From Marsupella aquatica (Eukaryota > Plantae > Marchantiophyta), in assembly GCA_973895155.1 (NCBI GenBank), contig OZ316893.1:13036359-13100358 (forward strand): a DNA stretch of 64,000 bases, read 5' to 3'. Numbering within the stretch: position 1 is the stretch's first letter; each line of letters opens with the position of its first letter. The notes beneath the pieces were generated by a model, which was not told where the DNA came from, did not search any database, and saw only the letters and a list, made by a program, of their open reading frames with translations. This document shows, in pieces, positions 10,101 to 51,355 of this stretch. Both the position numbers and the translations under genes were made by a program.

Positions 10101-10979
10101 AAACTCATCCTATTGATATTATGCTAGTAAAGTGTAGGGATATAGTATTATCTCTTCCCAAATTTCCACTAACACACATCAAATTTGTTATAATTCACCA
10201 TTTGCTCCAGCTCTATATTTTTTGCTTCCCTACTATTTTGGCTTTTATACTATATTGTAAGATTTTTGTGAGCATTCCTCATGGCACTAAGGGCATGAGC
10301 ATTTGCCTGATATCCCCCGCTCAATATGGTCGACATTGTCTCTAACAATTGCCTATGATCTACACCCATATTTGTGTTGGTCATGTTCTCACCTAACCAA
10401 AACAATATGTGTTATAGGAATATACGCTTAAAGTGCGTGTTGGTTGGTTGACAAGGTATGGATGAAGCGTGTACAATGAAGCTGGATTAGGAAATTCTAA
10501 AATATCATGCATTGTACATCTTGTGTTGGTATCAACATAGCCCGAACAATGTGATTGCAAGATTTATTATTTTTTAAATTTATTTTGTATGGACTCCATT
10601 AGAGGTTCCTTCCAAAATTTGAAACTCCACAACGTTCCATGTCATCATGACGCGCTACAAATAGGAACAAATTGGTTTCAAAAAAAAGATTACTTCACCT
10701 TTCGTGTTTGTTGCAAGATTTTGGTAAAATTGAAGGACGTCATGCCATAAAATATGATGTAAAATTATTTTAAATAATAGTTTTATTTACCCTAAGTAAT
10801 TGACTGTGCATTTAGTAGTAGGCCCACCCTCATTCTGAATTTTGATTCAATTGAGTAGAGGATAGCGAGAGAAATGCTTACTAGAAGCGCAATGATGATG
10901 GGGGCATTATTAAGCAACAAAGGGCCACCGATGATGAGGATGTTGAGATGAAAATTGAGGATGTCACACCATTCTGAGT

Positions 10980-12641
10980 AGTGTAGTAGTATATCGTGCT
11001 ATTAGAGTATGTACGTTTGGTATGAGTGCTATTGGAGCCGATAAGGTTCCGTCAGGTTTGTGTGAGAGGGTACTTCTCACTTGTGAGGCATTGAAAGGTC
11101 ATCTTTCAATGTTGAGCCTTGGAGAGAGAGGAGCTTGAGTGTGGCTATGGTGGCTGTGAGCTCCGCTTGTGTAACGTGGATTCCTTGAGTAGTGCAAGGT
11201 GCGTTGGCTTGACATACGTGTGTGATCGGATCGGTGCGGGATCGATGGGGTATTGTTGATCGGGATCGTTGTGCCGATCTTATGGAGATTACATTGAAAG
11301 ATGACATTTGAAATCTGTTGTACGGACTGTGCGGACAGAAGTTCGATTGATTGAGTTGTCGACGATTCGTGGTAGCTCGGATCGTGCGTTGTTATCAAAC
11401 AGATCGTTGGTATCTTGACCTGTATCGTTGTTGTCTGATCGGCCTGCTTCCCGATCGATGTACAGATCTGTGATTGGTGACAGGTTTTGAGTTGGAGGTC
11501 GATTGATGATTCGTGGAGGAAAGCGAATATTGAGTAGATGTTGGACAGTGGAAGTCGATCCGTGAGGCTTCAGATCCGATTGCCGGCTACTGTGAGGCTT
11601 CAGATCTGATTGTCGGCTACCGTGGGGCTTCAGATCTGATTGTCGGCTATTGTTGGACGATGTTGGCAAGGCACAGGTGAAGCGACGGCTCTTTTCCTGA
11701 AGGAACGGAGCTGCCAATGCCCCGTAAGAAAGAAACGAGGGTCAAAGGTGTTGAATCAAGCTGCTGCCAATTCTGTGGAAGGGCTGCGTTTTTCATGAAG
11801 GAAATCGACAGTTTTCAAGAGCTTTTCGTGAAGGAAGTAGTCATTTTAGGGGTCAGGTGTGAGGCGCATGAGGCCACCCATCCCGAAAGTGCTCGCGCGA
11901 GGCGACGCGTGAGGTCACCCATCCTGAAAGTGCTCCCAACCGCGAGCGCAAAGTCACCCATCGCGAGCGCAGGCAGGCGCAAGGTCGAGGTCACCCATCC
12001 CGGGGCTATTCCGAGCCGTGAGTGCGAGGGAAGGCACAAGGTCGAGCACGAGGAGGTCACCCATCCCAGGGCTATTCCCAACCGCGAGCGCTTAACTGGC
12101 AAGTTCTCATCCCAACTTGTGTACACACAAGCTTTGACAACTTGTTGTTTAGATTCAAGCGCCAGGGGAACTTCCCGGTTTGTTTAGAGGCCTATTCTAG
12201 GCCAAATCAGAGGCTGTTTTAGGGTTTTTGATACTTCTAAGTCCATCTAGACTCACAGATTGAACCAATTTTGCCTTGGTTCTCATCTACAACATTGGAG
12301 TGCCATTGTGAAGCCTATTATGAAGGCTCTTCCTTGAACCTTATGCACATTGTCATATTGATTTGCATTTGCTTTTGTGTGGAGAGTTGAATGGTATCCA
12401 TTCTTGTTTCTGGATCCTCTTCACACATATTTCCTGTTTATGCGCCATGTTAGTTTGGTGTGGGCGCTTGATTCCATAGGAGTGATCCGGGTTTGCAACT
12501 GGACATTCTAGTGTGCTGTGTATTTCTCTCTTGGTGATGTTGGAGTGATGCCCAACACACCATGGTGAGTGCTTGTGGTGCTGACAGGGATAGATTGCCC
12601 TTAGGGTTAGCACATAGATTAGATTAGGGTTGGTCACCACG
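10980..12641 (+). other. Putative 5' LTR/leader remnant of the Ty3 element
   Basis: Non-coding, repeat-containing, CpG-rich region directly upstream of gag. It ends in CCACG (12637-12641), close to the inverse of TGTGG after the PPT at 29297, and is followed by a possible PBS TGGTGCTG at 12650. No direct 5'/3' LTR match could be seen. Confidence 0.35.
11561..11650 (+). repeat. 3 x 30-bp tandem repeat
   Basis: cgtgaggcttcagatccgattgccggctac / tgtgaggcttcagatctgattgtcggctac / cgtggggcttcagatctgattgtcggctat. Confidence 0.95.
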
Positions 12642-15107
12642 GATTCTTTTGGTGCTGCTGGATTACCCGATGGACGACGGACCGGTTTCACTCGGAGTGG
12701 GGCACAATTTTGGCCAGCGGCATTGGTAGCAGTCAGCAATGTAGCTTCAGACAGTGATTCTGATGAGGACTCAGTGACCAGTTCTCCTCATCATCAGGTG
12801 GTTGCACCTTTATTGTGGGATATGGACGAGATGTACGGGGCTACAAAGGGCCCACAACAATACTCTGGTGCAGTTGGCACAATTGATCTGGATGACTTCA
12901 TCCAGGAGTTTGATACGTGGTGCGATATGCAGACATTGCGTAACGTCACATTGTTTACCCCTTTCATGGCATGGAAGGGATTATTCCAGCATTTGGAGGG
13001 GCCACCCATGGATGACTACCATGAGTTTCGGAAGGCTCATTTGGTTGAGATTGAGGCATGGAGGCAACATTGGTCACCTAATTACGTGTCCATCACCTAT
13101 GGCACTAGTGTGGCTGCCCAACCCATTGCCACAACTGCTGCTTCTTCTAGCAGCACTAGCCAGAGTGGCACACCATCCATCAGCAGCACTCCAACAGCAT
13201 CCATCGCTACTCCTGCCGGTGTGATTGTGACAGGAACTGGAGGTGCGCCAGCATTTAATCCTGTGGTGGAATTCTTTGAGGTACTGAAGCAGAACTATCA
13301 GGGTGTGAGAACTGATAAGTTGAAGGGTCTTCAGGAGTTCCAACGCAAGACTGGAGAGAGCCTACGTGAGGCATACACACGTATGCGCAGATTGATCACT
13401 GTCACCAAGGGAGTGACAGAGGCTCAGGCAGTCCAATTTTGGTATGCAATTCTGGACAGAGAATTGCGACGCAGAATGAGAGATGTCACTCTACTTAGGG
13501 ATGCAGATCCCACATTAGCAGTTGTTTTCACCCTTTCTGAGCGCATTGAGCTCAATATGGTGAATGAGAAGGTGGTGACTTCTGGATTTGCCAAGGAAGC
13601 ACCAAAGGCTGCATCTACATCCACACCATAGCCTACTGCACGGAAGAGCTAGAGGGAGAAGCCTACTGCACGAGAGTCTACCAGCCAGAGACCTGTGCCC
13701 TCTTATGCTGGACAACAGTCAGGATGTTGGACCTGTGGTGGGGATCATGCACAGAGATAATGTCCAGATCATAGAGGATCAGGGGGAGCATCAGCGCCTG
13801 ATCAGCGACAGTGTGATCACTGTGGAGCTCCAGGACACACCAAGGATAGATGTTTCTCACTCCACCCTGAGTTACGGAGAGGAGGATCTTGTACACATCA
13901 TCAGGGAAGGGGAGGAGGAGGTAGAGGTGGTGGACGTGGTCGTGACATGCCACATGCAGGGAGACAGGGAGGTGACGCTACCCCTGCTATAACCATAGAT
14001 CCAAAGGATGCTAAGATTGCTCAATTGGAGCAACAACTAGCTGCCATGGCTAGTTCCCAGGTGAGACCTAATTCTGGTGATGGGCCATCTACATCCTATG
14101 GACCTTCCACATCCCATGGTCCTTCCACATCTTATGGAGCTGATGGAGACCTTGCCACCATGGGATTCATGTGTGGCACTGCACATATTGATGCATCAGC
14201 AGCTTTGACACGTGGGGCAGCCAAAGCTCTTGAGCCCCAAGGAGCAGTAGTGAAGTTAGATCCACAGAGGGGGGATGCACATCGGCAGACAAAGCTTCCT
14301 CAGTCTTTTATATTGTCAGAGATAATTCAGACTACCTCTATGAACCCGATTCGGACAAACCCTAGCATGGGTAAGTTGGCAGAATTAATTAGTGATGCAG
14401 CAGGGATGACAAGTACCCTACTGGGGGCGGCTACTGCCATAGTACGCACCCCATTATTTTCAGCGACAGACATGCTGAACTAGGGAGTTGGTCCTACAGA
14501 AGTGTTCAGATTGGCAGCTACATTCTGTGAGGACACTCCAGTGGTTGCTTCCCATGCAGAAGCAACTTGCAGTGTTGAAGCAGTGAAGACCATGCCACCT
14601 ACTGCTACTAGTGAGACATGGCATGCAGCAGCAGTGAGGTTGGTGGATTTACCAGCATGCCCTATATTTGAGAGGACTAGGTTTAAACCTAGTGTTGTGT
14701 CATTGGATAATCGAACTGGTATCTTCCGATTAGTTGGGCCTTCTGGAGCAGTATACCAGCCAGAGAGAGTGTTACTGGATACTGGTGCTCAGCCCTTGAT
14801 GTTGGGAAAGTCTGCCATACATGGATTGGGATTGCGTCCAGAGGATTTGGAGGATTATCCCTTTCCCATTCAGACTTCATTGGGGGGACCTACACCTACA
14901 CAACATATCACCAGGAGACCACTTGATTTGAGGATTCAGGAAGGTCATACCACAGATAGCTCACAGATACAGGCACGAGCTATTCTGACTAAGGCAGAGT
15001 CATATGATGTGTTGGTGGGATGTACAATGCTCTACCCCATGGGATTTATTCTTGATTTTTGGGAGGAATCAGTGTCATATAGACCTGATTGGCAGTCAGG
15101 AGATGCT
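12630..15107 (+). pseudogene. Ty3 gag + aspartic protease portion of the polyprotein
   Basis: Single frame with stops at 13629, 13650, 13758 and 14481. Contains a Gag MHR-like motif (FQRKTGESLREAYTRM), zinc knuckles CWTCGGDHAQR*C and CDHCGAPGHTKDRC, and protease motifs VLLDTGA (D at 14778) and YDVLVG. Confidence 0.9.
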
Positions 15108-16972
15108 TATAAACGATAAAAATTACACCGGCGATATTATAGTTTTTTTTAGGTTTAGAAGTGTCAACTAGAGGTCAACCAAGAGTATTTAGGAAGTAGT
15201 AAGCAAGGACCAGTGGTTATTCATTTTGTTGAGATGACAGAAAGGCTGGAAGTAGGGGAGGCGACGATCATCTTGATTAACGGTCGTGTAGGAGTCGAGT
15301 TCTGCTATGAAGGCTGCGATGGCCTACTAGCAGATGGCAGAGTATGTGCCTTAGGCACAAGAGCTCGACAGAGAAGGCAAGGGGGGGGCGAATATAGGAA
15401 CCCCCGTTAGCAGGAATCGGTTAGCTCATGAGTGTAAGTCGCTAGGCGAAGGAGTGCCTATGTTCATGTTCACTATTCGGATCAAAGAAGGAAGCTGTCG
15501 TGTATGGGATGCGGCGGGGCAACAATTGTTTGGAATGAAGGGCGAAGAGTTCCGCCAATGATTCACCACCGGCGAGGCCATCGAAGAACTCTGTAGAAAG
15601 GTCATGCGGAAGAAATGGAATCTACTGCTAAGACGGGAGAACAGCCACGATCAGCGGATTACGTGGCGATTAATCACCGCCAAACAAGTAATCGTGGCTG
15701 GCGAACCGAGCAACCCCAAGGAAGATGACAGAAGTCAGGAGGTCGAGGCACATATGGCAAGATTAACAATCGAAAGTCCGGAAGCTTCCGGATCAGGCGC
15801 AACCGAAGGGAATCGAGGAGGCCGTTGCACAGTTCAGTAACCAGGAAGACAGAACTTCTTGACATAGTAATCAGCAGTTCTTGGCTTCCACTCATCGTTC
15901 TGGTAGGCATTAGTTAGCGTTCTTGATGAATGAGCGAAGGAGATCAAAGAGGGGGCGCGAGTCGTCCAAACTGTAATCGGCGCACCCCAAGAAGTAGTAG
16001 AGGCCTCGGGCAAAGACGGACGCGAGGCATAGGTATTTAGAGGCTGTGGAGCGCTAGGCGCTCTGTCACTGTTTGCTAGAAGTCTGGGGCAAGGGAGAGC
16101 TCCACTCACCTTAGGAATGCCAGCAATTTTGTAATAGTGTCCCTACTCAGTTGAGTAGTCTTTGAGTATAAAGAGAGAGTTTGGAATGAATGCAACAGAG
16201 TGAAGTACGCACTTGAGCAGTGAATGAGACCGTCAAATCAGAGAGAGAGAGAGAGAAGGAATTTGCCTTATGCAGCAAGTCGTTACTCGTTAATCGCAAC
16301 GATGAATGAATATCGTCTCATTGCGAACCAGAACCTTACGGGCCAGCGCCTCAAGGTATAGGTTGAACAGACAGCTAGTGAGAAGCGGTGTCTGGTTGGA
16401 GATAGTGTGTTTTGAAGGCGATACACTGGTCGTCATACACCTCCATCATACAAGGGTAAACGTGATACTGGGGTACTTGCTTAGGGTAACCCTGTCATAG
16501 TCACCCACACAATCCGGAAATCAATTGCCAGGCAGGCTGATTCAAAGGACAGTCGGACTTAATTAGGTCACGGCTACTAAAAACCATGAACGCAGACAGC
16601 AGTGACGACAAGTCTTGCTCCTTGATTACCTTAAGATCACTGGAATTGTGGATCTGTTCTATCGGCACCCATCTTATTTCCCGTCAGTTACTATACGAGA
16701 ACATTCCGATTTGCTTGATCACTTACCGCGAGTGGTGTGGGTTCATTGAGATTGTGTATAGAGAGGGGTTAGTGTTGGCCGAGGCTGAAGTGCCTAAGAA
16801 GTGGAAGACGGAACTCGACATTCAAGAGCACTTGGTCGGATTCACTTACGGGGACTGTGTCGAGATAGACGGAGTGCCGCCTCTCGAAGGTCGGTTAATC
16901 GTTTAAATGAGATTATTGAGGAGAAGGTAGTTAAACGGCCATTAATCGCAAGGTCGAAGTAGGCGTTTAACA
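15108..16972. mobile_element. 1865-bp solo-LTR-like insertion with 5-bp TSD ATGCT
   Basis: ATGCT at 15103-15107 and 16973-16977. Termini TATAAACG...CGTTTAACA form an imperfect inverted repeat of the TG...CA type with a G>A change. Removing the insert and one TSD copy restores the host reading frame. Confidence 0.8.
15235..15700 (+). pseudogene. Degenerate RPA70 C-terminal-like (Zn-ribbon OB-fold) ORF inside the insertion
   Basis: Frameshifted pieces FCYEGC...VC...AHECKSLGEGVPMFMFTIRIKEGSCRVWDAAGQQLFGMKGEEF...KKWNLLLR echo the Rep_fac-A_C pattern (YxAC..C..C..C, F.e.ae.llG.sa.el). Confidence 0.5.
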
Positions 16973-16977
16973 ATGCT

Positions 16978-18489
16978 CGATTGAGCAAATTGCCAGTGAC
17001 ATTTAGTGGACCTATGGGAGGCCCTAAATCCACACCATTGTCTTTGGCAGCATTCAGTGGTGTAATTGCTGGACCTGATGATTTGATTGAGGGTAATGCG
17101 CATGCAGCCAATGTTCCACCATTGGAGGAGTCTCATGAGGAGCACATCATGCGAGGATTACCTGTTGGCAGTGTTGTGCCACCAGTGTGGGGCACTGCAC
17201 AGGCCTTGCAACAGGCAACAGCACGATTGGTACATGATGCATGGCGTCATGCTTTTACACCACAGTCAGGAGTAGAGCAGTCTCTTGCAGATGGACCTGT
17301 GACTCTTTCACCATTGGATACCACTCCTATTGCTTGGCAGTATCCACCGGAGGGTATTTGTTTGTTGGATCTTTTTGGTGGGATTAGCACTGGATTGGCT
17401 GCTCTTCTTCAGGCAAGAATTCCTGTGCGTCGTTATTTGTATGTGGAGACAGATGAGACAACACGGAGGGTCTCATTGCGACATGTGGCTATGTTGGTGG
17501 ATAGATATCCACAGTTACTACCAATGGATGCTGTTCGTGGTTATCAGCATGCACTACCTGCTGATATTTCATTGTTGGGGGCGGATCATCTACATCGTGT
17601 TGGCCCCATTGATTTGGTGATTGCTGGTTGGCCATGTCAGGGCCAATCTAGAGCTGGCATTGGGCATGGACTTCATGATCCACGCTCTACATTGTTTTGG
17701 GAGATGTTACGGGTGCTGCGTCATCTCCAGCTACATCAGACACAGTCTCTAGCATACATTTTGGAGAATGTGCCATTGTTAGGTGATGATCGTAGTCGGA
17801 TTGTTGCCAGTGTTCACCAGGTGAGGTCTTGGATTGGACTTGTTGTGTTATTGGATGTTGCACGTGTGGATTCTCGTGCACATTGTCCACGCTTGTGGTG
17901 GACTAATTTGATCCCATGTGAGGTGCTGAAGCGCGCATTTGACAGCATTCCACGCTCACCAGCCTTAGTGGTGGATGATATTTTGGATCTAGGGCGTCGT
18001 GCACAGGGTGTGACCCAACCTGATAGACCTCCATTGGCAATGGTCAATGCAGTTGGGTGCCCACATTGTGCATTACCCACTCTTGTAAGCCACTCTACTT
18101 CATATGCATTCAGAGCAGGTGGCCCTGGACTTGTATGGGACACAGCTCTCCAGCAGTTAGTGGAGCCTACTGCTGATGAGAGAGAGCGTGCTATGGGATT
18201 TTTGACTGGCACCACTGCAGTTGCCTCTATGTTAGAGTGTTTGCGGCGCCAGGTTCTTGGTCAAGCAATGAATTTGAATTGTTTGACTTGGATTATCAGC
18301 TTGGGAGTAGTTGAACAGTTGCGGATGCACTCTGCCAGAATTACTGATTATCCCTTGGTGAGCTTGCGGTCCACTGAGACAATATTGACCACAACTGGGG
18401 GTGAGCAGACAGTCCATGGACCTATGACAGGATTGGTGGCTGCACAAATTGTTGAGCAGGAAGGGACTGCTCAATCTACTGCTAAATAG
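16978..18489 (+). pseudogene. DNMT3-like C5 cytosine DNA methyltransferase domain within the retrotransposon pol frame
   Basis: Motifs in canonical order: I LLDLFGGISTGL (17362), II YVETD, IV IDLVIAGWPCQG (PC at 17632-17637), VI ENV (17764), VIII AH[C]PRLWWTNL (17881), IX ERERAMGF, X RRQVLGQA. They closely parallel the DNMT3 catalytic domain. Confidence 0.92.
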
Positions 18490-18534
18490 CAATCATCGGC
18501 TATCTCTTCTACCCTACAAAGAGATATTAGGGAT

Positions 18535-18930
18535 TTGGTGGAGAGTTGGGAACCACAACTTGGCCCTAAGTTAACAGGGGAGGAGAGACGTCGCATGCAT
18601 CGATTCCTGAAGAGTTATTGGAATTGTTTTGCATTCAGCATGAAGGATTTGGGGACATTGAAGGGCCCTGGTATTCAGATTGAACTGGCTAGTGATGCAC
18701 CAATCTTTCGTAGACCATACCGTTATAGTGACATGGAGAGAGCTCTGATTCAAAGTAGAACTCAAGATTTGTTGGAGGCTGGATTGGTGGAGATTTCATA
18801 TGGGGAGTATGCATCTGCCATAGTGATGCCAGCCAAGAAGGATGTGCATGGCAATTACACAGATAGGCGCATGTGTGGTGATTACAGACCTATTAATCGC
18901 TAGACAAAATCTGATCGATATGCCATGCCC
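18535..18930 (+). pseudogene. N-terminal part of Ty3 reverse transcriptase, truncated by an insertion
   Basis: PIFRRPYRYS...LLEAGLVEIS...YASAIVMPAKK...RRMCGDYRPINR*TKSDRYAMP, in frame with the DNMT domain across one TAG. Ends abruptly at 18930. Confidence 0.92.
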
Positions 18931-19829
18931 CCCGGGGTCCTCACTTAATAACTTCCGACCCATCACGCGCGAATAAGTATAGGGTTTTTTAATTCAATTT
19001 TCTAGAATACTTAAGAAGTTTTGTGGAAGAACTATAGGGGTTTAAAATTAAATCCCGCAACTTAGAAGTATAGTAGGGCAGAAAAAAACCTTGCTCTTCA
19101 ATATAAGTTGTTAGTATAAGATAGGGGTATTAGCCAACAAAATATATGGGGTATACGTGTCAATCTTTTATTGGTCCACGTGGCAAATTCCTTTCATAAC
19201 TTGGTTTAGGGGCACCATGTGGGGGACCATGTGTACTCCATGGCCAATTTGGGTCAAAATTTAAATTATGGGTGTGAGCGGGAGGTCATCTATGAGGGGA
19301 GAAGAGCAAGGGTCAGGCGCGCAGGTCGAGAGCCATTTAGGACCATCGATCCAGGTTAGTGCCGTTTGTGTCAACATCATGCGGCCATACATTGGTAGGA
19401 CAGTCCATTCTTTGTTACTTGCAACGAGACTTGCGGCGGCCATGCAGGGCCTGATTTAGGGTAAAATCAAGCAGCGATGATCCAACCATCCGTTTGTTGG
19501 GCCATCGGTCGGCTATGGTTTGCCCTGGCCATTTTGAGAAGTTCGTGAACGTCTTGCAGCGTTTTGGGCAAAAATTGAGAGGGTGAGTCGCGAGGGTAGG
19601 GGCTAAACGCTGCCTCGATACTTTTCGAAAGGAAATGCATGCATGCTGCAGGGCGCTGCGATGCACTGATTGAGGAAGGTTGAAGATTGATCGAGGGCGA
19701 GATGACTGTGGATGGAGCTGCTGTGATCGGGGGGCACTAATTGCTGTGATCGGGGAGCTTTGCTGTTTGGGCTCAATGCTGCTTCGATACTTTTCCGAAG
19801 GATTTGCATGCATGCTGCAGGGCTTTATA

Positions 19830-20330
19830 TTGAGCTGCAGCTTGATCGGGGGCGGGGCTGCGACTTTACATTGAGCTGCAGCTTGATCGGGGGCGGGGCT
19901 GCAACTTTACATTGAGGAGCTGTGATCGGGGGCAGGCTGCAACTTTCAATTGAGCTGCTATGATCGGGGCTGCAGCTTTTGATTGAGCTGCTGTACGTGA
20001 TCAGGGGACAAGATTGAGCAAGGCTGAGATTGATCGGGGGGACAATTGTTGATCGAGCTGCTGCTGTGACCGGGGGAACTTTTTGTTGAGCTGGAGCTGG
20101 GTCGGGGGCGGCGCTGAAAATTTCAATTGACTGAGGAGCTATGATCGAGGGTGGGGCTGCAACTTTCGATTGCGCTGCTATGATTGGGGTGCTGCAGCTT
20201 TTGATGGAGCTACTGTGATTGGTAAACCTAGATTGGGAATGATGGAGCTATTGTGACCGGCAAACCTATGATTGATCGAACCTGTGATTGAGCTGCTATC
20301 ATCGGCAAACGTGTGGTCGAGTTGCTATCA
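19830..20330 (+). repeat. ~41-bp GC-rich tandem repeat, degenerating rightwards
   Basis: ttgagctgcagcttgatcgggggcggggctgcgactttaca at 19830-19870 and a near-identical copy at 19871-19911, with further diverged units carrying gatcgggg. Confidence 0.85.
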
Positions 20331-20537
20331 GAGGGCAAACCTACTTTTGGTGGAGTTTTCTATCCATTGCTCTTAGTGCTTTTGAATTGCCTATGCTGTG
20401 TGTCCTACTTTTTGTATAAATTGCACTCGTGATGTTAAGGGCAATGCTCATTTGTTTGTATGCTTTTCAGTTTACTTGTTGCCACCTTACGCTCCGCAAA
20501 GAAACTTCTCGTGCCATGCATCTCATCGCTAGTCTAC

Positions 20538-20800
20538 TCTATTGCTCGCTACTCTGCTCTATTTCTTGCTCTCTGCTCTATTGCTCGTTGCTCTGCTCTA
20601 TTGCTCGCTGCTATGCTCTATTGCTTGTTGCTTTGTTGCTCTATTGCTCGCTGCTATGCTCTATTGCTTGTTGCTTTGTTGCTCTATTGCTCGCTGCTAT
20701 GCTCTATTGCTTGTTGCTTTGTTGCTCTATTGCTTGTTGCTCTGTTGCTCACTGCTTTGTACCTCGTTGCTCTGTCGCTGCTCTGTACCTCGCTGCTCTT
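20538..20800 (+). repeat. Higher-order minisatellite (20+23-bp subunits, 43-bp period)
   Basis: ctattgctcgctgctatgctctattgcttgttgctttgttgct repeated exactly at 20598, 20641 and 20684, flanked by degenerate monomers. Confidence 0.95.
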
Positions 20801-22108
20801 TTGACAGTCCATGCCAATGTTTGTTGTGCAATACCTTGCTTACCCATAGCTTCATTTGTTAGCCAGCTTTCTCCTCATCAAGCCAGCTCCTTTGTCCTTG
20901 ATCATGTGAGCTAGTGTCGAGAGCTCCTAAAGAATCCATGTCTGTATCTCCCCCCTCTTTTGCAAGCAGATTTATGAGAGCTTGTCCTGCTTGTAAGGAT
21001 CCATTGAATGATGGCTTAGCACTCCAGATGTTGAAGTGAGAAGGAACTGGGGAAGGAACTTACCAAAAGTGAACACATTTAAGTGAGAGAAATGCCTGAA
21101 CTGCAGTCGCTGCACATGTTGATCATACTAAAAGCTCATGTTCGGGTGGCAGTCCAACTCATTCCAAGTTGGCAATAGAGCTTGGACAGGAACTCTGAAT
21201 TCCATGGATTGCTGAAAATCAATTTAGAAATAGAGGCTTTGACTTGGCGCAAGGGAGCTAATTCGATCTGCAAGTGCCATTTCATTCGATCTGCAAGTGC
21301 TTGTGGTGGAGTTTCCTCACTGTCCTGCTAGTTTTGAATTGCTTCCTTTGATTCATTCTGAGTGATTTGATTTTCTTGCTCAATAGAATGTCCTGTCAAT
21401 CATCTCCCTCTCTTTGTTGCTCTTGAGTTCCCTTTGCTTTGTCTAGGAGACTTAGATAAACTATTAGCTCTTGGTGAATGCAATATGTGGCTGTTCCTCC
21501 AAGGCAATGGAAGGCATTCGTTTATACAAGGTGGGCATTGGTTTGAGTTGTGACTGAGGTGATTGTGGCTGTGATCAAGGTGCAGCAAGAGTTTTGATCC
21601 AAGTAGGGGAATAGCAGATTCGCCCTTGGTACAACAGAATCCCTAGAGGCACTATTGTTTCTCCTCTGCCAGCTTGTGTGACATTCATTTGGCTTTGTGT
21701 TGTGTAGGTTTTCCAACCAAAGGTTCTCTTCAACATCTATAACTTGGAACCAGTATTATGCAGTTTGGTATGCCCTGACCCTGGCTCTAGCTGAACTCGA
21801 ATTGAAATTTAAAGTTGAATTTCAGTCAGCCTTTTCATATGCTCTTGACTTGTCTTGCAGGATGGATTGGCTTAGGATGTAGTGGAATCATCTGAGAAGC
21901 TTCAGCAATATACCAGGGTTCACATGTGAAGATTGTGGAAGGAGCAGGATTCAAATATCACCATTTGCTGCAGCTACAATCAAACAAGAGATTGATTAAA
22001 GGTATGATTCTATCTAGGATGCTTGTAGTTGCAAGTTACATAATATCAATCTACTGTTCAATATATGTTGAATGGATGTTGAGGGGTTGCAGAACAAATG
22101 TTGAGTGA

Positions 22109-22823
22109 ATGGATGGGCCTGTGTGCAGAGGTAAAACCACTATCCAAGAAGCAGAGATGGCTTCTGATGTGCCCAGGATTGACATATTTTCCCATAAGGA
22201 GCACCACCGCATGGACCCCCCTTGCTGTTTCTTTTGTGATGAGACAGACGATGTGGTTTTCTGTGATGGGCCTTGTAGTAGACATTTTCACTTTGTCGGT
22301 GGAAAAGGTATGCATGGGCCTAATTGCACTCCTATCACATTGCCTAAAAACAATGACTGGAGGGCACCTTGGGTTTGTACACTCTGTGCTGCTGGTAGAG
22401 CTAGATGCTTTGCTTGTGGCCTCATTGGCAGATTTGAACATCCCACAGCAGAAGAATCTCTTGTGCTCCATTGTGCCCACCCTGACTGTTTTTCTCATTA
22501 CCACCCTGGTTGCCTTAGGGTGCACACTTATGGTTGGGGCACTGCCTGAGAGGTTTCATACAACAAAACCAAACAGCCTAATGTGCCCAAGGCATTTCTG
22601 TGAGTACTGTAAAGTCTACAAGGATGGTATTAAAGACTTTGTACAGTGTCGCAGGTGCCCTCGAAGTTGGTGTCATGATGAGAAACTTGGGGGAGTGAAA
22701 CACCTCAGGAGGTGTGTGAAGGGCAGGGACCACTGGGATGTGGAAGGGTGGCATTTCATTTATTGTCATAGGCATGCAATACCTGATGGGGAATTGGTTC
22801 CTGCACAGCCACATACCTCTTAG
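22109..22823 (+). pseudogene. EDM2/NSD-type composite (triple) PHD finger module, frameshifted near 22540
   Basis: CFFCDETDDVVFCDGPCSRHFH...WVCTLC...CFACG...CAHPDCFSHYHPGC, then in the next frame CPRHFCEYC...FVQCRRCPRSW...FIYCHRHAIPDGELVPAQPH. This parallels the plant EDM2 PHD region (CRRCPKSYH...LIYCQEHEID). Confidence 0.8.
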
Positions 22824-23088
22824 AGTTTCTGAAATTGGTAGAAATGCTTTGGTAGAGGGTTGGTACAAAGCAAACTTATTCACTAGACTAATTACATGTG
22901 AACTATGATCAACAAGATTTTGTTTGTGTTGGACTTCAACTTTTTTGATCAAAAGATTTTTGTAACTATTGTGGAGTAATGTCTAATATGCTTCATATCG
23001 TTTTGTTTATTGTGCTGTATGGCAGGTTCATTGTGTGACTGATTGTTTTCAGAACCCTTCATACTTTAACTTTAACAAATTGATTGAA

Positions 23089-26000
23089 ATGGCTACCCAG
23101 TTTGTAAAACTATTGCACAAGAAAAGAGATGTGGTGACTGATGGGAAAGATGAAGAACCTATAGCTGTGTTGGCCTTCAAAGAGGGACAAACTTTAGCTG
23201 ATTTTTGAAGTCGAATTCCTGATTTGGATGATTTTGATTTTGATTTCTGGGATTATAGGCTTCCTGGTCGCATGAAAGTCAAGAGTGAGAAAATGATTGA
23301 GTTGTCTGAATTGGATGGGAAAGTTGCTGTCATTGAACAAATAGGATCCTTGCCGACTGGTAGAACACAGTTTCCATCAGTATCTCCTACTGTCACCCAA
23401 TCGGCTGTAGTGAACTCTTTACAGGGTGAACAGCTTCATGAAGCTCCCCCTATGAGAGCTTCTTTTGAGTCTCTTCTCATGTCTCAGTCGGCTGTCAAAG
23501 TCTAGAATGATGAATATATAAGACTAGAGAAGTGGATTCACAAGAATGGTTATAAAGCTCATAATTGGAGAATTCAAACTTGGGATGAAGGACAGGATGT
23601 GAGAGGCCATCTAGAGTGTCTTGAGTGCAGAGTGATCTATGGGAGGGCAGACAATTCACAAGATAAGAAGTCAATTGCTAATTTGTTCAGCAATTTTAAG
23701 ACCAAGCACCTTGCCTTTGCTAAACACAAAGACAATTACTACAGGAGAAGGGGCATTGCTATGACTAGGGTCAAGCCCTCAGATCTTGCACAGAAGCCTG
23801 AGTTTGATTATGAGGGGGCCATAGCAACTGGCCTAGAGATAGTCCAGACTCTGAATGTTGAGTGTGGAGGTGATGATGAGCTATTTCATGTGCCCCCTGT
23901 GCCTGGTGTAGCCAATAATGCAAACAAGTGGTTCCTTTATAAGGTTCGTTGTAAAATCTGTGGGGCAATCATGGATTTGGTTTGTAAGAAAGGGACTTTG
24001 GACCACAACCTGAGGACACACTTGGTCAGTCGGGGTCATCTGGATGTAGTTGAAGCCAGAGAGAATACTACTGAACTTGCATTGAGATCTGGAAAGAGGG
24101 GCAGACCAAGGAAGCCAGATGAGAGGGATCAACATCCTTCACAGAATTCAATTTTAAAATTCTTCAAGGAGGATGCTTCCAATGCAAGCAGTAGCTCTGG
24201 CACAGGTGGGTCTATAGACATTGATGTGGGCTTAAGTTTGCTCTGTTGGGGAATATGGGATGAATTTGTAGAGTGGAAGAATGTGAAATATGCTGTGAAA
24301 GGTATCTTGCATGATCAACGTGGTGGACATGTATGGGATTTAGATGTTGCAGCCTCTGTTCATGTCTACAATCCCGTCACCAATTCTATTGTACATATAG
24401 AAGGACTATTTAGGCATAAACATTGCTGTAGGTTGTCCTTGTATGGTGGAGGGTTTCTGAACCTTACTTGCAGTAGATGTCATGCTATAACACTAGAAGA
24501 TGACTTTTGTGGGCGGGTGCACAGGGAAGCGGAGGCTTTAGCAAAGAGAGGGGGAAGAAGCACAGAGGATGGTTTGAATGCACGTTATTTGACACGTCCA
24601 GAGTTGACCACACAGATGCATGGTCTGAATGTCAAGAGAAGAAAGGAGAGATGGTTGTTGGCACAACAGACTCAAAAAGTGTGTGCCCTTAGTACTAGGA
24701 AGAGAAAATTGCAGGAACTGTTAGGAGTAGCTGCAGACAGAAAAGATTTGAGACTTTTTCTAAAAAATATTGTCAATGGTCATAGGAATGGTGCATTTGG
24801 TGGAAAAGAAGGTCTTTGGGATTTTTTGAAGGATGTAAGTAGAAATTTGGAGAGAAGTGCAAGGGGGTTTCGTTACAGTCAAAAAACAAAAGCCATAGCT
24901 CAGGCTATGTTTCAGTATGGGGGCCGGCAGGTGGCCCATGTTTTTGCAAGAAATTTAGCTGGGCCAAGCCTGAAGACATTGAAAAGAGATAGAGCAAAAT
25001 TTGTGCAATTTCGTGCTGGAATTAGACCAAAAACATTCAAGGAGGTGGCTCGGATTTTGTCTGCTGCAAAGGAGATGCTAGGAATTCAAGGCGATGTACC
25101 TATCATGCTTGCAGAGGATGAAACTAGGATAAAGGAAAGCCCAAGGTATGTTTGTATATCATAGCATTTGAAGCTTATTTGTGATACATGTAGACTTTTT
25201 ACTAATTCTTTATATCTGACTTACTTTTCATTGGGCTCTATGCAGGTGGGAGGCCAAGTATGACACTCTGATTGGTTTCTGTGGCCATAAGGATGAGCAT
25301 ACCTGTGAATTTGGACTGGAGATTCTTGTAGGTGACGGTGAGGATGGCTATAATAAGATTGTAAATACATTTGAGGATTATAACAAGGGCATGTATGCTA
25401 GAGTTGTCATTGTCAATCCATTGCATGTTGGAATGCCAAAGTTGGCCCTCTGTGCTATATCTACCTGTAACAAGTTCAAGGCAGAATGGGTTCGAGAGCA
25501 TTGGGTGCAATTAAAAGAATCTTGGGATGTGCACTACAGAGACTTTGTAGTCCTTTGCTTGGGCATGCTAGTGATGGTGATGCAAGACGTAGGAAATTGA
25601 TGCTAGAAGACTATAGAGGAGCAAATGGCTCTTACCCTAGATTCTGTGTAGGGTGGGAAGGATGGCCATATTCAGTTGCCATATTGCCTAATGGGGACCT
25701 ATACGGTTTTGGTGATCAAGACCAGCCTCACAATGGGAAAAAGTTGATTAACCCACTAGATCGAGTGTCCTCAATAATGGCACTTGGAGACCAACATGCT
25801 TCTTTGTTTCATGTTTGTAATGTGTACAATCGCTATGCAATTCATCAACATGGATTAAATTGGGATGATGTGAACAGATCTGATCGTCAAAATTGGGCTG
25901 GTCCCCAAATAATAGCATCCGAAAAGGTGCGTGATTGCTTAGCAAATCTGCATGTAAGAACTGATCTATCGTATGAGCGAAGTTTGGGGACAGAGTTGTA

Positions 26001-27648
26001 TCTGCAGGTCTGTGCAGATTACATTGACATTTTCTACTCCCAAAGATATAACCTGAGAACCAGAGTGAAGCTGGCAGGCAAAGTATCTTGGTTCTTTCGA
26101 TTGTGGAGGTTGTGGTTGAGGTACGGTGATCATGCTGTTGGTGGAAATATTGCTTCACATACAGAGAAAAATATGATTTCAATCCAAGCTTTTCATGATG
26201 TTAATATGTCTTGTCAATTTGTTGTGTTGCTTGTGTGTGCATTTTGTGATAAGTTTTCTCACTTGTGTATTCCATTTCATGAATTGGGTTCTGATTGTTG
26301 TGAGATCTTTTTCAGCAAGGTAGGTGGAATGAGTGGCCATGAGAGGAATTATGATTTTGGCTCTTTGTTGGATAGTGCTGTTGGGTTGAATCGTCTTGCT
26401 GGATTAGAATGTGGACCAGAGGGCTTAAAAGTAGCTCGCTCACATAAGAAGCAAGATCATGTGTGGGCCAAGCTTCATCCTTTACTTGAAGGTGAAGATG
26501 CACCTAATCTTTTTGATTACTCTGGAGTGCAAACTAATGAGTTGGTGGTTGCAGCATTGAAAGAAGGATTCGAAGAAGCAAAAGAGTTGCTAAGAAGGTT
26601 ACAAATGTCTCCCTGGAGTGATCTTCTAGCAGCAAGAAAGCGATGGTGGACTCACCCTTGGGATGTGGAAGTTGAAACATGGCCAGATTCAGCTGTAATA
26701 GAAGAGGTAGTTGTTGCTGATGATTCTGAAGAGCATGTAGAGCACAGATCTCCAATTGGACCTCGTCCAGAAGGAGAGTTTCATGAATTTGAAGATCCTG
26801 AGGAAGATCTAAATCGAATTGATGCATGGTTGACAGATGAGTTAACCATTCCTGATGATGTTTTGCAGGATGGGGCTGAGTTAGACATACCAGAACCTCA
26901 TTCTGTAGAGGTAGATACTTTGGGGCATGAGGTTCGTCATGTTCTATCTTCTGTTGTGGCTGAGCTTACAGAGTCTATTTAGAGCCCTGTGCAGGAAAAG
27001 AAGAAGGTTTTGCCTACAATTACCTATGAGGGCAGAACAATTTACAAATCAACTTTGGTGAGTCAACTAGTGGGCAATCCTCATTTGTCTAAAGATAGGC
27101 TAACAAGGGTGAAGCAAGTGGCATACTATAATCTTGGTAAGAGAAAAAAATGTGATCCAAATACTGTGACTTGTTTTGTTGATGTTGGGAGTGATTGTGG
27201 AGTAGCTTTTGAAAGTGCTAATGATGCAGGCCCTTCTACAAGATCAAAGAAGGGGAAAGGTAAGGGAAGAGGTAAATCTAGGATTCAAGAGCCAGTAGTG
27301 CAAGCAAAGAAAGAATTTTGGGTTGGTCGGATTATGATGATGAGACAGAAAGTTAAGGGACAATGGACTAGAGTGAGATCTGCTATTGATTTGCTTGACA
27401 GACCAACACCTCCTCATGGACACGAAGGGAGTATTTGTCAGTTCTTGTTCAATTGGTATAAGCCAACAAGCTCAAGCAAAGTTGAATTCACTTATGATAC
27501 AACTGATTTACAATGGATTGATATAGAAATGGTGATGATTAATGTTACTCTAACCATGAAACAAGGGATTGGTTTAGTGTATGTGTTAGATCGAGTTGAT
27601 AAACAAGCTTTGGATACTTATTTGGAGACCATGTCTAGAGTTGAATGA
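23089..27648 (+). pseudogene. Large P-element/THAP9-like DDE transposase gene with N-terminal C2H2 zinc fingers and an AT-hook
   Basis: ATG at 23089; stops at 23206, 23503 and 26980; GT-AG intron at 25146-25245; frameshift near 25548. Motifs: CLEC..H..H, CKIC..H..H, KRGRPRK, GFRYS...GPSLKTLKR, LAEDETRIK...YDTLIGFCG, HASDGD, DQPHNGKKLINPL (DxxH), DRQNW, ADYIDIF, LGSDCCEIFFS. Confidence 0.75.
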
Positions 27649-27693
27649 TTTGCATGCATCAATAGTCATGGTAGCGGTTTTAGTATGTAAGAT

Positions 27694-29121
27694 GTGAGAG
27701 TGTTGGAATATCTATGCAGTAGTTCTATTGTTGGCAGTGTTGATGCCAAGGAACGTGATAGGGTTCTACAGAGAGCCAAGAGGTTTCGATGGGAGGGAAA
27801 CCATCTTTTTAGAGTACTGCATGATGGTAGGATGTTGGTGGTACCAAAACCATCACAACGAGTACATTTGGTGCAACATGCGCACGAGGAGTTGAGTCAC
27901 TTTGGTGTGAAGCGCACTTACAGCTTGCTGCAGACACAGTATTGGTAGCGTGGTATGCACACTCATGTCCAGCAGTTGATAGCTAAGTGTGTGGTATGTG
28001 ATAGAGTGAGAGCATTATTTAATGCTCCCACTCCCCAGTTGCACCCGTTACCGATCATGGGTTTGGGATATCGTTGGAGTTTGGATTTTGCTGGTCCATT
28101 ACCTCTTACCCAACGCCATAATCGGTATGTTTTGGTCATGGTGGAACACTTCTCCAAGTGGATTGAGCTAGTGGCATTGCCAGATAAAGCCAGTGGAGGA
28201 GTTGCTGCTACATTTTTGGATCGTGTACTCAGTCATTTTGGAGCACCAGCTGAGGTGTTGACTGATCAGGGAACTGAGTTCCGTGGAGAGTTTGAGAGTT
28301 TGTATGAACAAGCTCTGATTGATCATCGTACTACCTCTCGTGATCATCCTGAGGCAGATGGATTAGTTGAGAGAGTTGTGCAAACTGTGAAGAGAGGATT
28401 GCGTAAGTAGGGCTTGCAGGTTGGTCATCTGGGAGATTGGGATCTCCAGCTACCTTGGTTAGCTATGGGCTACCATTTCAGTCGGCAAGCATCACTTGCA
28501 TCCTTCTCACCCTACTTTTTGCTCTATGGTAGAGAGCCAGATTTGCTAGCAGCTATTCGTCGTGATGCTGCACCAGTTGTGAACTTGGATGATCCTGATA
28601 TTTGGGTCAAGGTGTGTTCAGAGAGAGCATGGGTATTTCAGAGAGTGATGCCCATGGCTTTTGACAACCTTGCCATTGCCCAACATTGTGATACTTTGAG
28701 GTATGCCACTATTCGTGGAGGAGGTTACCGTGCAAGCATTCGATGATTTCATTCTGGTGATTATGTTTATTTGCAGCAGACAGCACCCACGACACTTGAT
28801 GTGACCGCAGGCCGGACAATCTTACGTGTACGTGAAGTGTTGCCTTCTGGTGTCCTGATGTTGGAGGGACGCGATGGTATGGTTTGGAAGGATCATGTGC
28901 GCAACTGTGCACCATGTCACCTTCCCAACATTGATGGTACAGTAGATCCAAGCTTGGCACATGTTCGTGCTGGCTTGAAATATATGTTGTGTGGATCTGC
29001 TCAGGGAGCAGCTACTATGTTGATTTGTGATAAGTGTTCTAGAGGATGGCACATGTCATGTTTGACACCACCATTGCAGGTGATTCCTAGTGGATCATGG
29101 TTGTGTCCTCAGTGTCGGTGA
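27694..29121 (+). pseudogene. Ty3 integrase (H2C2 + rve core) with C-terminal PHD finger
   Basis: HEELSHFG...CVVC; WSLDFAGP, LTDQGTEF, DGLVER. One frame through stops at 27946, 28408 and 28744. Ends [Y]MLCGSAQGAATMLICDKCSRGWHMSCLTPPLQVIPSGSWLCPQCR*, a C4HC3 finger with the first Cys changed to Tyr. Confidence 0.93.
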
Positions 29122-29285
29122 AGCCGACTAGTTATCATTTGTGTTCTCTTGGCAGATATGGATTGCAGGTAGGTGATCGATGGGGCTCACTTGCACCCGG
29201 CCTCCTGATCTTCACACCTAAAAAGGTGTATATCAACCTTGTAGAACTCATGGCTAGCTAGAGTTAGGGGACCTTACTCCCAGTT

Positions 29286-29295
29286 AGGGGGGCGA
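29286..29295 (+). promoter_or_regulatory. Polypurine tract preceding the putative 3' LTR start (TGTGG at 29297)
   Basis: AGGGGGGCGA about 165 bp after the pol stop, followed by T-TGTGGG. Confidence 0.55.
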
Positions 29296-30498
29296 TTGTG
29301 GGTTTTGGACATGTGTGGACATGAGTTTCACTTGTATTCCATTCTCTTGTGTTTGTGATGTGGCAGCGTGACTATGTTTGGATGTATGTGACAAGCGATG
29401 TATGTTGTGTAGCGATATGTATGCGCACGACAAGGATCATGAGATTAAATTCACCATGAGAAGAAACAGACAAGTACAATAAGAAAAACTATGTTGGTAG
29501 TAGATGACTAAGACAACCATCGATCGCATGAGGTCTCGCACTATCTGACACTCTTAATTTGTTGAAGAAAGATTGACCGACACCGTACAAGATCAAGAAG
29601 CCAATCAAGATCAAATTCACGAGAATCATAGAAAATCACAAAATAAATAGGGATTCACAAACTAATTATTACTTTGAATGTAACAATGATGAAGGGGAAA
29701 GACAACTTTGTGAATTACCACATGCCAAGCCAAATCTTGAAGCATGCGCACAAAAGTTATCCTTTCCTTCAAGTTGTTTACATTTATACTTCAATCTATG
29801 TGATACCTATAATTTAGATATTATTTTTAAATCAAGTAAAAAAATTCACAAGGAATCAAAATATCCATGTAAAATATCTTATGTTGAACCAAAACTCCAA
29901 ACATGCGTGGAGATAGGTAATCTCATCAGTTACCAGTCACTTTCATCAGTCAACTTGATATCAGCTGCCACCTCATCTCAGGGAGGCCGCTAGGGTTGGC
30001 GGTGCGAGAAAAAAAATGGAGATTTTGTTTTGAATTTTAAAAAAAAATTGAGGAAAAAAAGCTCTATTTCAAAATTGTTTTTGCCATGGGGCGCCCGTAT
30101 CGTACAAACACCTCATCTTGGCGAGGCCAACCGAGATGGGAGAAAAAAAATTCTGAATTTTTTTATTGGAATACTTTTCCTTTTTTCCGGTCCGTACACT
30201 CATCTCGGTGAGGTCAGCCGAGAATGAGTCAACCTCAACTGCCTAGCTGAGATGCACGGAGGTGCGAAGGCCCCATCTAAACTCCTCAGCTGAGATTCTA
30301 AATTTTTTTAGATAATTGATATCAGTTATTAGCTATTGATAACTGATAATGTTGTGTACCCCAACATGCGCACATGAAAATGAGGAAGAGTGAGGGGTGC
30401 TCAGCCTCTTATAGCCTCGGCCCGGCCCCATCCCCCCATCCCCCCCTCCCAAACCCCTTGCCTGTCCTTCCCTTCTCAAGCCCGACTCCATTTGCCAG

Positions 30499-31479: not shown

Positions 31480-33690
31480 ATGGCGATGATGCGAGGTCCT
31501 GCCCTTTGGTCTCTCTTCGTGTTTGCGGTAGCGTTGGCGTGCTCGTCGAGCGTGAGCGCCAGCAAGGGCTCCGTTCTCCGGACAGTCCATAGCCCCAGCA
31601 AATGGTCCGTGTGCGGTAAGATTCTACTGGAGTTGATCGACCTTTTTTCTAGTACTTTCTCTGCATCTTCGATTGGGGTGTGCTGAAGGTTTGATTCGAA
31701 TTTTCTCGTCAGTGGAGCGAGAGCTAGGGTCTCGGAATCTGGCCTGGACAATAGAAATTTGCTTTTAATGGTTATGTGCCGTTTGAAGGGAGTCCGGATG
31801 GTGTTGGTGGAATTGCTGAGGTTATCGTCGGAAGGATTTGAGAATGAGAGTGGGCAGAGATGATTTTGTTATTAATTTGTTGAATACTTATGTCTAGGGG
31901 ACGTTGGATCCTATGGGAGTCCAATTGGGCGCCTAGGTATCTCAATTAGCGAATGATGGAGTCAGAAACTTATCAGAGGGTAGATTGGTTCGTGCGAAGG
32001 GCAGTTTCTCTCTAGGATGTGTTTATGTTACTGAACAGATATGGTGGATTTGACGAAGAAGTTCAGGCTTGTCGAGGGAGTTTGAATGGCAGGAAAATTG
32101 CTCTGAAGGGATCACTAGGCAAAGAGTCATTGGCTGTGTATTGTATTGATTGCTTCGTGTCAAAGATTTGTCTTTTACAATTCTTGCTTTTTGGTTCTTT
32201 GGTGAATGGATCCGTAGGGCAGCCCTCAAGGTACAGAAATTTAATGGTCAAACTATCAGACGTAACAGATGTTAGTTACTAACCTGTCTTCTTGCACATG
32301 CAGCTTCTAAAACCTATGCCGTGAAGATCGAGGATGTGCAGATATCGCCAGATCCCGTTGTTGCTGGACAGTTGGCTACCTTTACCATTCCTGCATACGC
32401 AAGTGAGGATTTGAAACTTTCATGATGTTTCGAGTTCATGTTGTTTCGAGTTCATGTTGAGACCTGCACTGTTCGTTTGGAATAGAATTGACACATGGTC
32501 AGACTGCGGTGATCAGTTTTTCTAATCTATGAAAGGTTTGTCTGGGTTCTCTTTCCTCAGGTGATATTCTTGTGATATTGTAGACAGCCTCTCCCTGCGT
32601 AAGCCTTGTAGTGTCTGTGCCCATCACCTCGTTTCTGCAGTATGTGTTAGGGAATGTGGGATTATTAGTGGCGGTCATTGTTTATGGCTGTTGCTGAATT
32701 GATCTTGCGGAAAGTTCGGTACTTTGACAGATTTAATGATGTCTTCCGTGGTCCGTTTAGAAACTATGGCTTTTTGTATTCTCGTCTCCGTAGTTTTCTC
32801 GGTCAGGATTAGTGGTGAAAAAGTCTTTAAGGAAAAAATTTCTTACGCAAAGCAGAGATGTGGCAAGGGCATGTCAGAAAGGTTCTTCACCACCTCAAAG
32901 TTTTTCCAATTGGTTGGGATAACATATGCGCATCTATTTGTTCGGCCATTGTTGCCTCTAATGTTTGGGCTTCCCGTTCAGATGAGGAACTCGAGGGAGG
33001 GACAGTTGTGGTGACCGTAAGCTTCTTGGGAATAAACGTGCATACAGAGAAAGATGATCTCTGTGCGAAGTCTAATTGTCCAATCAAAGGAGAGTTCACG
33101 TTGAACAGTGCAGAGTTCCTGCCGCAATTTACCCCTCCTGTAAGTGATTGTGGTCTTTATCTCAATGAAAGACATGCCCCTGTGCAACTCGCTCTACTTC
33201 ATGCTCAGAGGCTTAGTAAAGCATTACCTGCCATTCATAAGTGGTATCCTAAAGTGCCTTCTTTGTGGTCGATTTGATATTTGTGCATCTTTAGATTCTC
33301 TGTCTTGCATGGTTGAGTTAAGTGTCGCTGGCTTAAATTTGGCAATTAACGTATGTATCTCTTCAAGACAAGCTACAGTTATACCTCTTTACTGTGATCA
33401 CCTTCGACCTCTCAAGACGGGCCGGGCCGAGCTACGAAACTCAAAACTGCACTGTTCAATTTTAGGGCGGTGTGTATTACTAGTGTTCATCAGTTGTTGA
33501 TCATCGGTTTTTGGTTTGACAGGGTTCATACAAGCTGAAGTTTCAGGTCTTGGACTCTGCTGGTAAGGAGCTGACGTGTGCATCTATTAGCTTCAGCATT
33601 GTGTGGAGGTCTCAGTTTGAGCAGCTTGCTGAGGCTACATCAGAATTGCAGAAGAGGTTGCGCATGCGACCATTGAAAGCCCTCATGTAA
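31480..33690 (+). CDS. ML-domain (MD-2-related lipid recognition / NPC2-like) secreted protein, 4 exons
   Basis: Exons 31480-31615, 32304-32402, 32982-33139 and 33523-33690, all GT-AG and in phase. Signal peptide, then WSVC...VKIEDVQISPDPVVAG...DLCAKSNCPIKG...PQFTPPGSYKLK...GKELTCASISF. Confidence 0.92.
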
Positions 33691-51305: not shown

Positions 51306-51355
51306 GATTTCTAGGTAGAGCTGCTTTTTTCACGTTCTTCGTTGTTCTGAGCTCA

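Follow-up and report, generated by a model that had tools for sequence, protein, structure and literature searches.

Retrotransposons that encode their own C5 cytosine methyltransferase have been described in dinoflagellates and in a charophyte alga (accessible text of PMC5890265), a precedent correctly given in the initial annotation of the locus studied here. The closest described system is KnitGypsy-Dnmt3 of Klebsormidium nitens, which combines Gypsy domains with an intronless Dnmt3-related domain under purifying selection and has DIRS-like repeats (de Mendoza et al. 2018, PMC5890265). A 2026 preprint and PMC12344493 call the hosts of KnitGypsy-Dnmt3 "streptophytes", with land plants unnamed in the accessible text of both. 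Why retrotransposons carry enzymes that normally silence them has been an open question since 2018, partly because the known hosts are difficult experimental systems. In this work, we analyzed a stretch of 64,000 nucleotides from Marsupella aquatica (Marchantiophyta; assembly GCA_973895155.1, contig OZ316893.1, positions 13,036,359 to 13,100,358 of the forward strand), hereafter the window, whose first letter is position 1; features lie on the plus strand unless stated. It contains a decayed Ty3/gypsy-type element with a DNA methyltransferase (DNMT) domain between the protease (PR) and the reverse transcriptase (RT). We propose, at somewhat better than even odds, that it belongs to an old bryophyte family in which a first reading frame would encode Gag, PR and DNMT, pol would be made by readthrough, and packaged DNMT would methylate the element's own complementary DNA (cDNA).

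The methyltransferase domain lies at 17320-18330, in frame between PR and RT as first annotated. The Pfam profile DNA_methylase (PF00145) matches it well above the cut-off (E 8e-11; 42.3 bits vs 22), and its motifs follow one another in unrearranged order, with motif I at 17365, the PC of motif IV at 17623, the ENV of motif VI at 17758, the RxR of motif VIII at 17878, motif IX at 18178 and motif X at 18253. The suspected replacement of the first motif VIII Arg by Cys in the window copy is real; among 152 other aligned homologues this Arg is kept in 149, the second Arg in 148, the catalytic Cys in 150 and the ENV Glu in all 152. The domain is under purifying selection. The ratio of non-synonymous to synonymous substitution rates (dN/dS), computed on 13 of 81 sequences, is 0.10-0.23 between families where dS is computable, most of these dS values being near saturation. 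For the unsaturated pair of loci L061 and L062 (dS 0.26) it is 0.13 for DNMT, 0.06 for RT and 0.11 for the protease. Inside the largest family, of 74 loci, it reaches 0.44-0.65, values that were set aside as post-insertion decay.

Since the structural model of the window copy's own domain was weak (predicted local distance difference test, pLDDT, 69, from 19 sequences), we used the model of an intact relative's domain (pLDDT 97). Its best structural match is DNMT3B (Z 28.9, root-mean-square deviation 2.7, 278 aligned residues), followed by DNMT3A (Z 27.5), the CpG-specific M.MpeI (25.8), HhaI (23.2), DNMT2 (22.3) and DNMT1 (19.0), which in the model gives the domain a DNMT3 fold. Phage C5 methyltransferases match the domain at 23-31% identity, as DNMT3 does, and the trees described below were built without host DNMT3 sequences. 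It is almost certain that the domain is DNMT3-like, element-encoded and family-wide. None of the three outcomes named in the initial annotation as refuting it came about: relatives have the domain, it passes the C5-methyltransferase profile, and its dN/dS between families is well below 1, with conserved catalytic residues. One could suppose that it is retained for binding, or for an RNA substrate, instead of DNA methylation. The Klebsormidium Gypsy enzyme gave no methylation in yeast, a result that its authors considered inconclusive (PMC5890265), and 68 of the 152 aligned homologues have Glu for the Pro of PC; both observations would suit such a role. However, the catalytic Cys, the Glu and both Arg are nearly invariant, the fold is nearer to DNMT3 than to DNMT2, and the related SymbioDIRS-Dnmt3 domains methylate CG de novo (accessible text of PMC5890265), making this supposition distinctly improbable.

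PR and DNMT are separated in the window copy by a nested insertion of 1,865 bp (15108-16972, no strand assigned) with copies of the 5-bp duplication ATGCT on both sides (15103-15107 and 16973-16977). Protease codons run at 12630+3n up to the GAT GCT at 15102-15107, and the methyltransferase frame has GCT at 16975 and CGA at 16978; thus, by coordinate arithmetic, the two share one frame once the insert and one ATGCT copy are discounted. This agrees with what had been proposed at first, and PR and DNMT are indeed contiguous in relatives: PR lies at most 1.3 kb upstream of DNMT in 62 of the 68 loci with enough flank, and RT at most 1.3 kb downstream in 61 of 67. The insert is probably a solo long terminal repeat (LTR) from a different family; no significant match to it was found elsewhere in the window or among the relatives' loci.

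Database searches yielded 54 long homologues and a further 126 near-length ones, with Marchantia polymorpha, M. paleacea, Calypogeia, Riccia and Sphagnum among the named hosts and no homologue labelled K. nitens. The profile search gave 452 clusters at 50% identity (E<=1e-30), of which the best 150 were examined. A metagenome scan confirmed 179 relatives, and the best 80 of these loci were retained; they form five families, with 74 of the 80 in one, which we call "Sphagnum-like" from a terminal peptide that it has in common with an S. jensenii protein. Among viral contigs, 46 pattern matches yielded no confirmed relative. The order Gag-PR-DNMT-RT-RNase H (RH)-integrase (IN)-PHD recurs across metagenome loci of the five families, and full-length Gag-PR-DNMT reading frames are present in M. 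polymorpha. The assignment to Ty3/gypsy is based on the PR-RT-RH-IN order, the DDE integrase, the polypurine tract and a 4-bp target-site duplication (TSD), in the range of 4-6 bp, with RH lost in the window copy alone.

Two placements of the DNMT were found, in the PR/RT interval (54 rows) and in the RNase H/integrase interval (99 rows). A single branch divides the two groups in the DNMT tree (153 rows), and likewise in the RT tree (70 rows). Between the trees, path lengths are correlated (rho 0.74, 70 rows). Both are unrooted FastTree trees, from which partial-domain rows and rows without the neighboring domain were excluded. The locus is heavily nested, with two foreign blocks, and could for this reason have been taken for a chance nesting or for a host DNMT3 gene captured just once. 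This was dismissed as having practically no chance of being right, the same position recurring in five other families and in several named bryophyte genera, in an intronless domain whose tree is congruent with that of RT. In the larger sister group (P0037-P0057 and many of P0302-P0440), which carries this DNMT in the RNase H/integrase interval, a chromodomain is added in P0057 and a G-patch in P0406 and P0054.

The single TAG between methyltransferase and RT was noticed at the outset and read through as part of one continuous polyprotein. Judged from its conservation, TAG 18487 is a junction and not damage, and it divides DNMT from RT. A stop in the RT frame, 16-23 codons ahead of RT, occurs at 58 of the 59 DNMT-RT junctions examined, the exception being L050, with an apparent frameshift. 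In L061 no other stop interrupts the 2,417 codons that run from Gag through PHD, and in L060 there is no other from protease through PHD. The latter relative is otherwise clean, and its Gag and protease lie in different frames near 2477, through damage, an assembly error or a real frameshift. The stop characterizes a sub-clade (9 rows, support 99). Its context is TAG CAA TCA in the window (18487-18495) and L060, TAG CAG TTA in L061 and L062, TAG CAA CCA in L004, TAG (or TAA) CAA CCC in the large family and TAG TAG CCA in the decayed L080. With junction positions picked after the junction survey, CAR-YY follows 48 of 50 unique junction stops vs 10 of 784 decay stops, and the full CAR-YYA follows 5 of 50 vs none of 784, being found in four of six families.

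The sequence CAR YYA 3' of UAG is the required readthrough signal of tobacco mosaic virus (TMV) and is functional in plant cells (PMC2754532), and a conserved in-frame UAG-CAR-YYA of this type is present in the window, L004, L060, L061 and L062. Moreover, 28 of 50 PR-DNMT proteins in databases, Marchantia included, end 59-179 residues past the domain. From these contexts it is very likely that RT-RH-IN-PHD would be made by readthrough of the conserved stop. The position of the stop would put DNMT in an abundant Gag-PR product and PHD with RT-IN.

Gag-pro and pol of Ogre elements are separated by splicing. A bypass of the stop by splicing with the TAG as 3' acceptor, by reinitiation or through a separate pol transcript could likewise replace readthrough, as the TAG matches the YAG of an acceptor, the linker is left out of public gene models (P0010) and, in the largest family, an ATG lies three codons past the stop. 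This alternative is improbable to us. In all six families the stop shares its frame with DNMT before it and RT after it, although the linkers differ in length, and the bases that vary after it are those at R and Y in CAR-YYA. Furthermore, there is no conserved Met for reinitiation after the stop, the first in-frame one being distant (codon 36 in the window, 48 in L004 and 117 in L061).

Readthrough would leave Gag, PR and DNMT at high dose and RT-RH-IN-PHD at low dose, the first frame ending at the UAG-CAR-YYA stop and pol being made occasionally. The protease would free the DNMT, which would be packaged at Gag-like numbers and would methylate the element's own cDNA at CG sites while this is a free circle, not yet inserted; the probable advantage is that both the extrachromosomal DNA and the fresh insertion would already be marked like host DNA. 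DNMT3 enzymes prefer CG, and the three best structural matches of the model are all CG-preferring. Such self-methylation of the element appears somewhat more probable than its contrary. A DNMT active on chromosomal DNA instead, methylating either the site of insertion or, in trans, further copies, so that the family or its competitors are damped and the host is spared, would agree with the abundance expected of a Gag-level product, with the DNMT3 fold and with the host-benefit models raised in PMC5890265. It is unlikely, as the domain is fused to Gag-PR in one clade and lies within Pol in the sister clade, and both arrangements suit delivery in the particle.

The integrase and the C-terminal PHD finger were borne out by domain profiles. 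The finger is nearest to those of CHD4, PHF12, PHF21A, KAT6A, DPF3 and KDM5, most of which read unmodified H3K4, and it would probably tether the integrase to nucleosomes in which H3K4 is unmodified. The initial annotation saw a chromatin reader-writer in the combination of the two domains. Both are present, but on different products, DNMT with Gag-PR and PHD with RT-IN, and a "reader-writer" is possible only at the level of the particle or complex.

The element extends beyond the 12630-29121 originally given, its true ends being 10962 and 29432. It runs from a TGTCAC start to a CACGACA end, between 4-bp TSDs AGGA at 10958-10961 and 29433-29436. No LTR pair and no repeat shared by the two ends was found in the window copy; in its place are a left terminal segment A (10962-11290, right border approximate; TGTCAY at the start in relatives), the predicted site of promoter, R and U5, and a right terminal segment B (29297-29432) downstream of a polypurine tract (29286-29295). 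Among eight loci with both ends, the 4-bp TSD is exact in six, mismatched in L038 and missing in L044. Most right ends, that of the window copy included, halt after B, and those of L009, L019, L048, L060 and L061 go on from B through 2 nt into A, where the junction reads CACGACA-nn-TGTCAY. A complete A-body-B-A-B copy is seen in L048 and B-A-B in L019; the A2|B2 junctions of both are heterogeneous and retain the last bases of the polypurine tract, which would fit end-joined circles.

The stretch right after segment A is complementary to a stretch within A, so that a primer binding site (PBS) at 11291-11305 and a 15-nt self-primer at 11098-11112 are predicted. L061 and the 74-locus family have the same layout with other letters, and in relatives the self-primer stretch lies some 25-30 nt downstream of a TATA box. 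The pairing extends over 15 nt in the window, 16 in L061 and 10-17 in about half of 21 large-family copies, vs shuffle maxima of 7-11. Taken together, the split termini, the 4-bp TSD, the lack of paired LTRs and the predicted self-priming site suggest integration from circular cDNA, which we consider reasonably likely. The functional LTR would be B+A, and self-primed reverse transcription would give a B-A-body-B-A cDNA that circularizes before integration. Retroviral integrase cleaves LTR-LTR junctions. Here, the integrase would cut the palindromic GACA-nn-TGTC where B meets A, producing the CA ends that are usual for it, and one-LTR circles would yield A-body-B copies and two-LTR circles A-body-B-A-B copies.

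The full combination, in which an unannotated bryophyte clade that includes Marchantia self-primes, integrates as circles through the palindromic junction and loads DNMT3 at Gag dose by a leaky stop, so that new copies are pre-methylated independently of host silencing, is put forward tentatively, at less than even odds. Several observations weigh against the explanation proposed for the element. In the largest family (74 of 80 loci) CAA CCC prevails, without the last A of the readthrough signal, and RNA folding after the stop in eight loci gave no consistent structure (z +0.5 to -4.5). The deeper relatives P0036 and P0304 are continuous, without a stop, and the DNMT of the sister group lies between RNase H and integrase; Gag-level dosage is therefore not universal. 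Of the 21 decayed large-family copies, no more than about half show self-pairing of at least 10 nt at the expected site, and L060 shows none; L044, one of the eight loci with both ends, has no TSD. To these must be added the negative yeast result, the near-saturation of most dS values between families, and CpG depletion, which is 0.29-0.44 in the element, 0.33 in the nested P-like block and 0.55-0.70 in near-intact relatives. This depletion was dropped as a sign of self-methylation, the nested block being equally depleted.

The window copy is a dead element, as first supposed; besides TAG 18487 it has eight premature stops, none of them in the DNMT domain, together with the motif VIII substitution and a Tyr in place of the first Cys of the PHD finger. 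Its Gag region (12822-14000, right border approximate) has a weak Retrotrans_gag match, two zinc-knuckle-like motifs at 13725 and 13812 and premature stops at 13629, 13650 and 13758. The aspartic protease (14640-15107) has a DTG motif near 14778 and matches PF13650 below the cut-off (E 0.003). After the junction stop, the N-terminal part of RT (18541-18930) has a premature stop at 18901. The remainder of RT and the entire RNase H are absent from the window, their place being occupied by a foreign block of 8.7 kb with repeats (18931-27690). The DDE integrase (H2C2 and rve, 27691-28950) has three premature stops and is followed by the PHD finger and terminal TGA (28966-29121). In the 5' leader, short tandem-like repeats occur along with an open frame of 168 codons (11560-12190). 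Beyond the PHD stop, a non-coding motif of 25 nt (29179-29203), conserved between this copy, L060, L061 and the 74-locus family, is near-identical across families whose synonymous sites are near saturation, and may possibly be an RNA hairpin. No Rfam family was matched within 10900-29500 and no tRNA gene was detected in the window.

At 22109-27648, the foreign block contains a P-element-like transposase preceded by NSD-type PHD fingers. The Atlas clusters nearest to the transposase, at scores of 0.91-0.96, have RNase H and TNP-like GTP-binding domains; it had no Pfam match, and no matching right terminal repeat was found. Elsewhere in the window, inverted repeats 73-84% alike and about 16 kb apart (38093-38672/54280-54713 and 37128-37232/55696-55985) enclose RPA1-like and ALKBH1 genes, with weaker CpG depletion (0.78), possibly an old DNA transposon or an inversion. 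The ALKBH1 exon is 69% identical to that of Calypogeia fissa and 40% to that of Marchantia, which, on this one gene, makes the host probably a leafy liverwort. Fragments of a Pif1 helicase, probably of a Helitron, lie on the minus strand at 61223-63934. Two small open reading frames, at 50904-51329 (minus) and 57668-58150 (plus), have signal-peptide-like starts and no Pfam match. A LINE remnant with zf-RVT (374-2777) and an ML-domain exon (32831-33277) were also found.

With Gag-PR-DNMT frames and methylation mutants both at hand in M. polymorpha, the question left since 2018 becomes testable. The conserved stop makes a concrete prediction on the dosage and location of the enzyme, and the split termini predict a circular intermediate; such termini would also hide these elements from pipelines that rely on paired LTRs. 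Moreover, the first reading frames pass in annotation for hypothetical proteins or for DNA methyltransferases of the host, and can distort bryophyte DNMT inventories. In the accessible text of PMC6453930, PMC6317226, PMC10714607, PMC6673714 and bioRxiv 2021.11.30.470311 no bryophyte DNMT-Gypsy is described, and in the literature, with subscription journals thinly covered, we found no report of the bryophyte range, leaky stop, self-priming, monomer ends or circle integration.

Other retrotransposon-borne C5 methyltransferases are those of SymbioDIRS-Dnmt3 and SymbioLINE-Dnmt (PMC5890265) and of EpiLTRs (bioRxiv 10.64898/2026.05.21.726589). SymbioDIRS enzymes methylate CG de novo, and these elements have A-coding-B-A-B repeats (PMC5890265), an order also found in the bryophyte elements. 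However, as described, these are independent captures by a tyrosine-recombinase element, a LINE and a chromovirus with DAM, without a DDE integrase and PHD in the bryophyte order. The window element differs from DIRS and tyrosine-recombinase elements in its rve integrase and 4-bp TSD, and from the canonical two-LTR element in having no full direct LTRs, its relatives being A...B or A...B-A-B. As for the stop, TMV has the same UAG with the 3' hexamer CAR-YYA, which sets the product ratio (PMC2754532), and murine leukemia virus (MuLV), Tca2 and SIRE1 have in-frame stops too (PMC2194720); in these texts the stops lie at gag/pol or pol/env borders, whereas the bryophyte stop comes after protease and methyltransferase. 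A PBS complementary to a stretch just past the TATA box, and not to a tRNA, is known from Tf1/Sushi and Tcn1 (PMC4600332, PMC6317226), which differ, as described there, in having two ordinary LTRs, usually a chromodomain and no DNMT. A PHD finger in the polyprotein is likewise found in the green-algal Gypsy-7a_cRei (PMC9940879) and in REM1, as cited in PMC9940879 and PMC6673714, but these algal elements have LTRs at both ends and no DNMT among their listed domains (PMC9940879).

KnitGypsy-Dnmt3 is the nearest of all, with the Gypsy domain set, an intronless Dnmt3-related domain under purifying selection and DIRS-like repeats, which correspond to A-body-B-A-B in L048 and B-A-B in L019, the window copy having the A-body-B form. 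Unlike it, the bryophyte element resides in a land plant, and its DNMT is split from RT by the conserved stop, where that of KnitGypsy-Dnmt3, by its description, shares one uninterrupted open reading frame with RT; among the relatives, only deeper ones (P0036 and P0304, for example) have it so. The accessible text of PMC5890265 mentions neither self-priming nor a 4-bp TSD nor A-body-B monomers for KnitGypsy-Dnmt3. As the DNMT lies outside the RT open reading frame and the comparison is by description alone, the element is a variant of the KnitGypsy-Dnmt3 kind and not a strict member of it.

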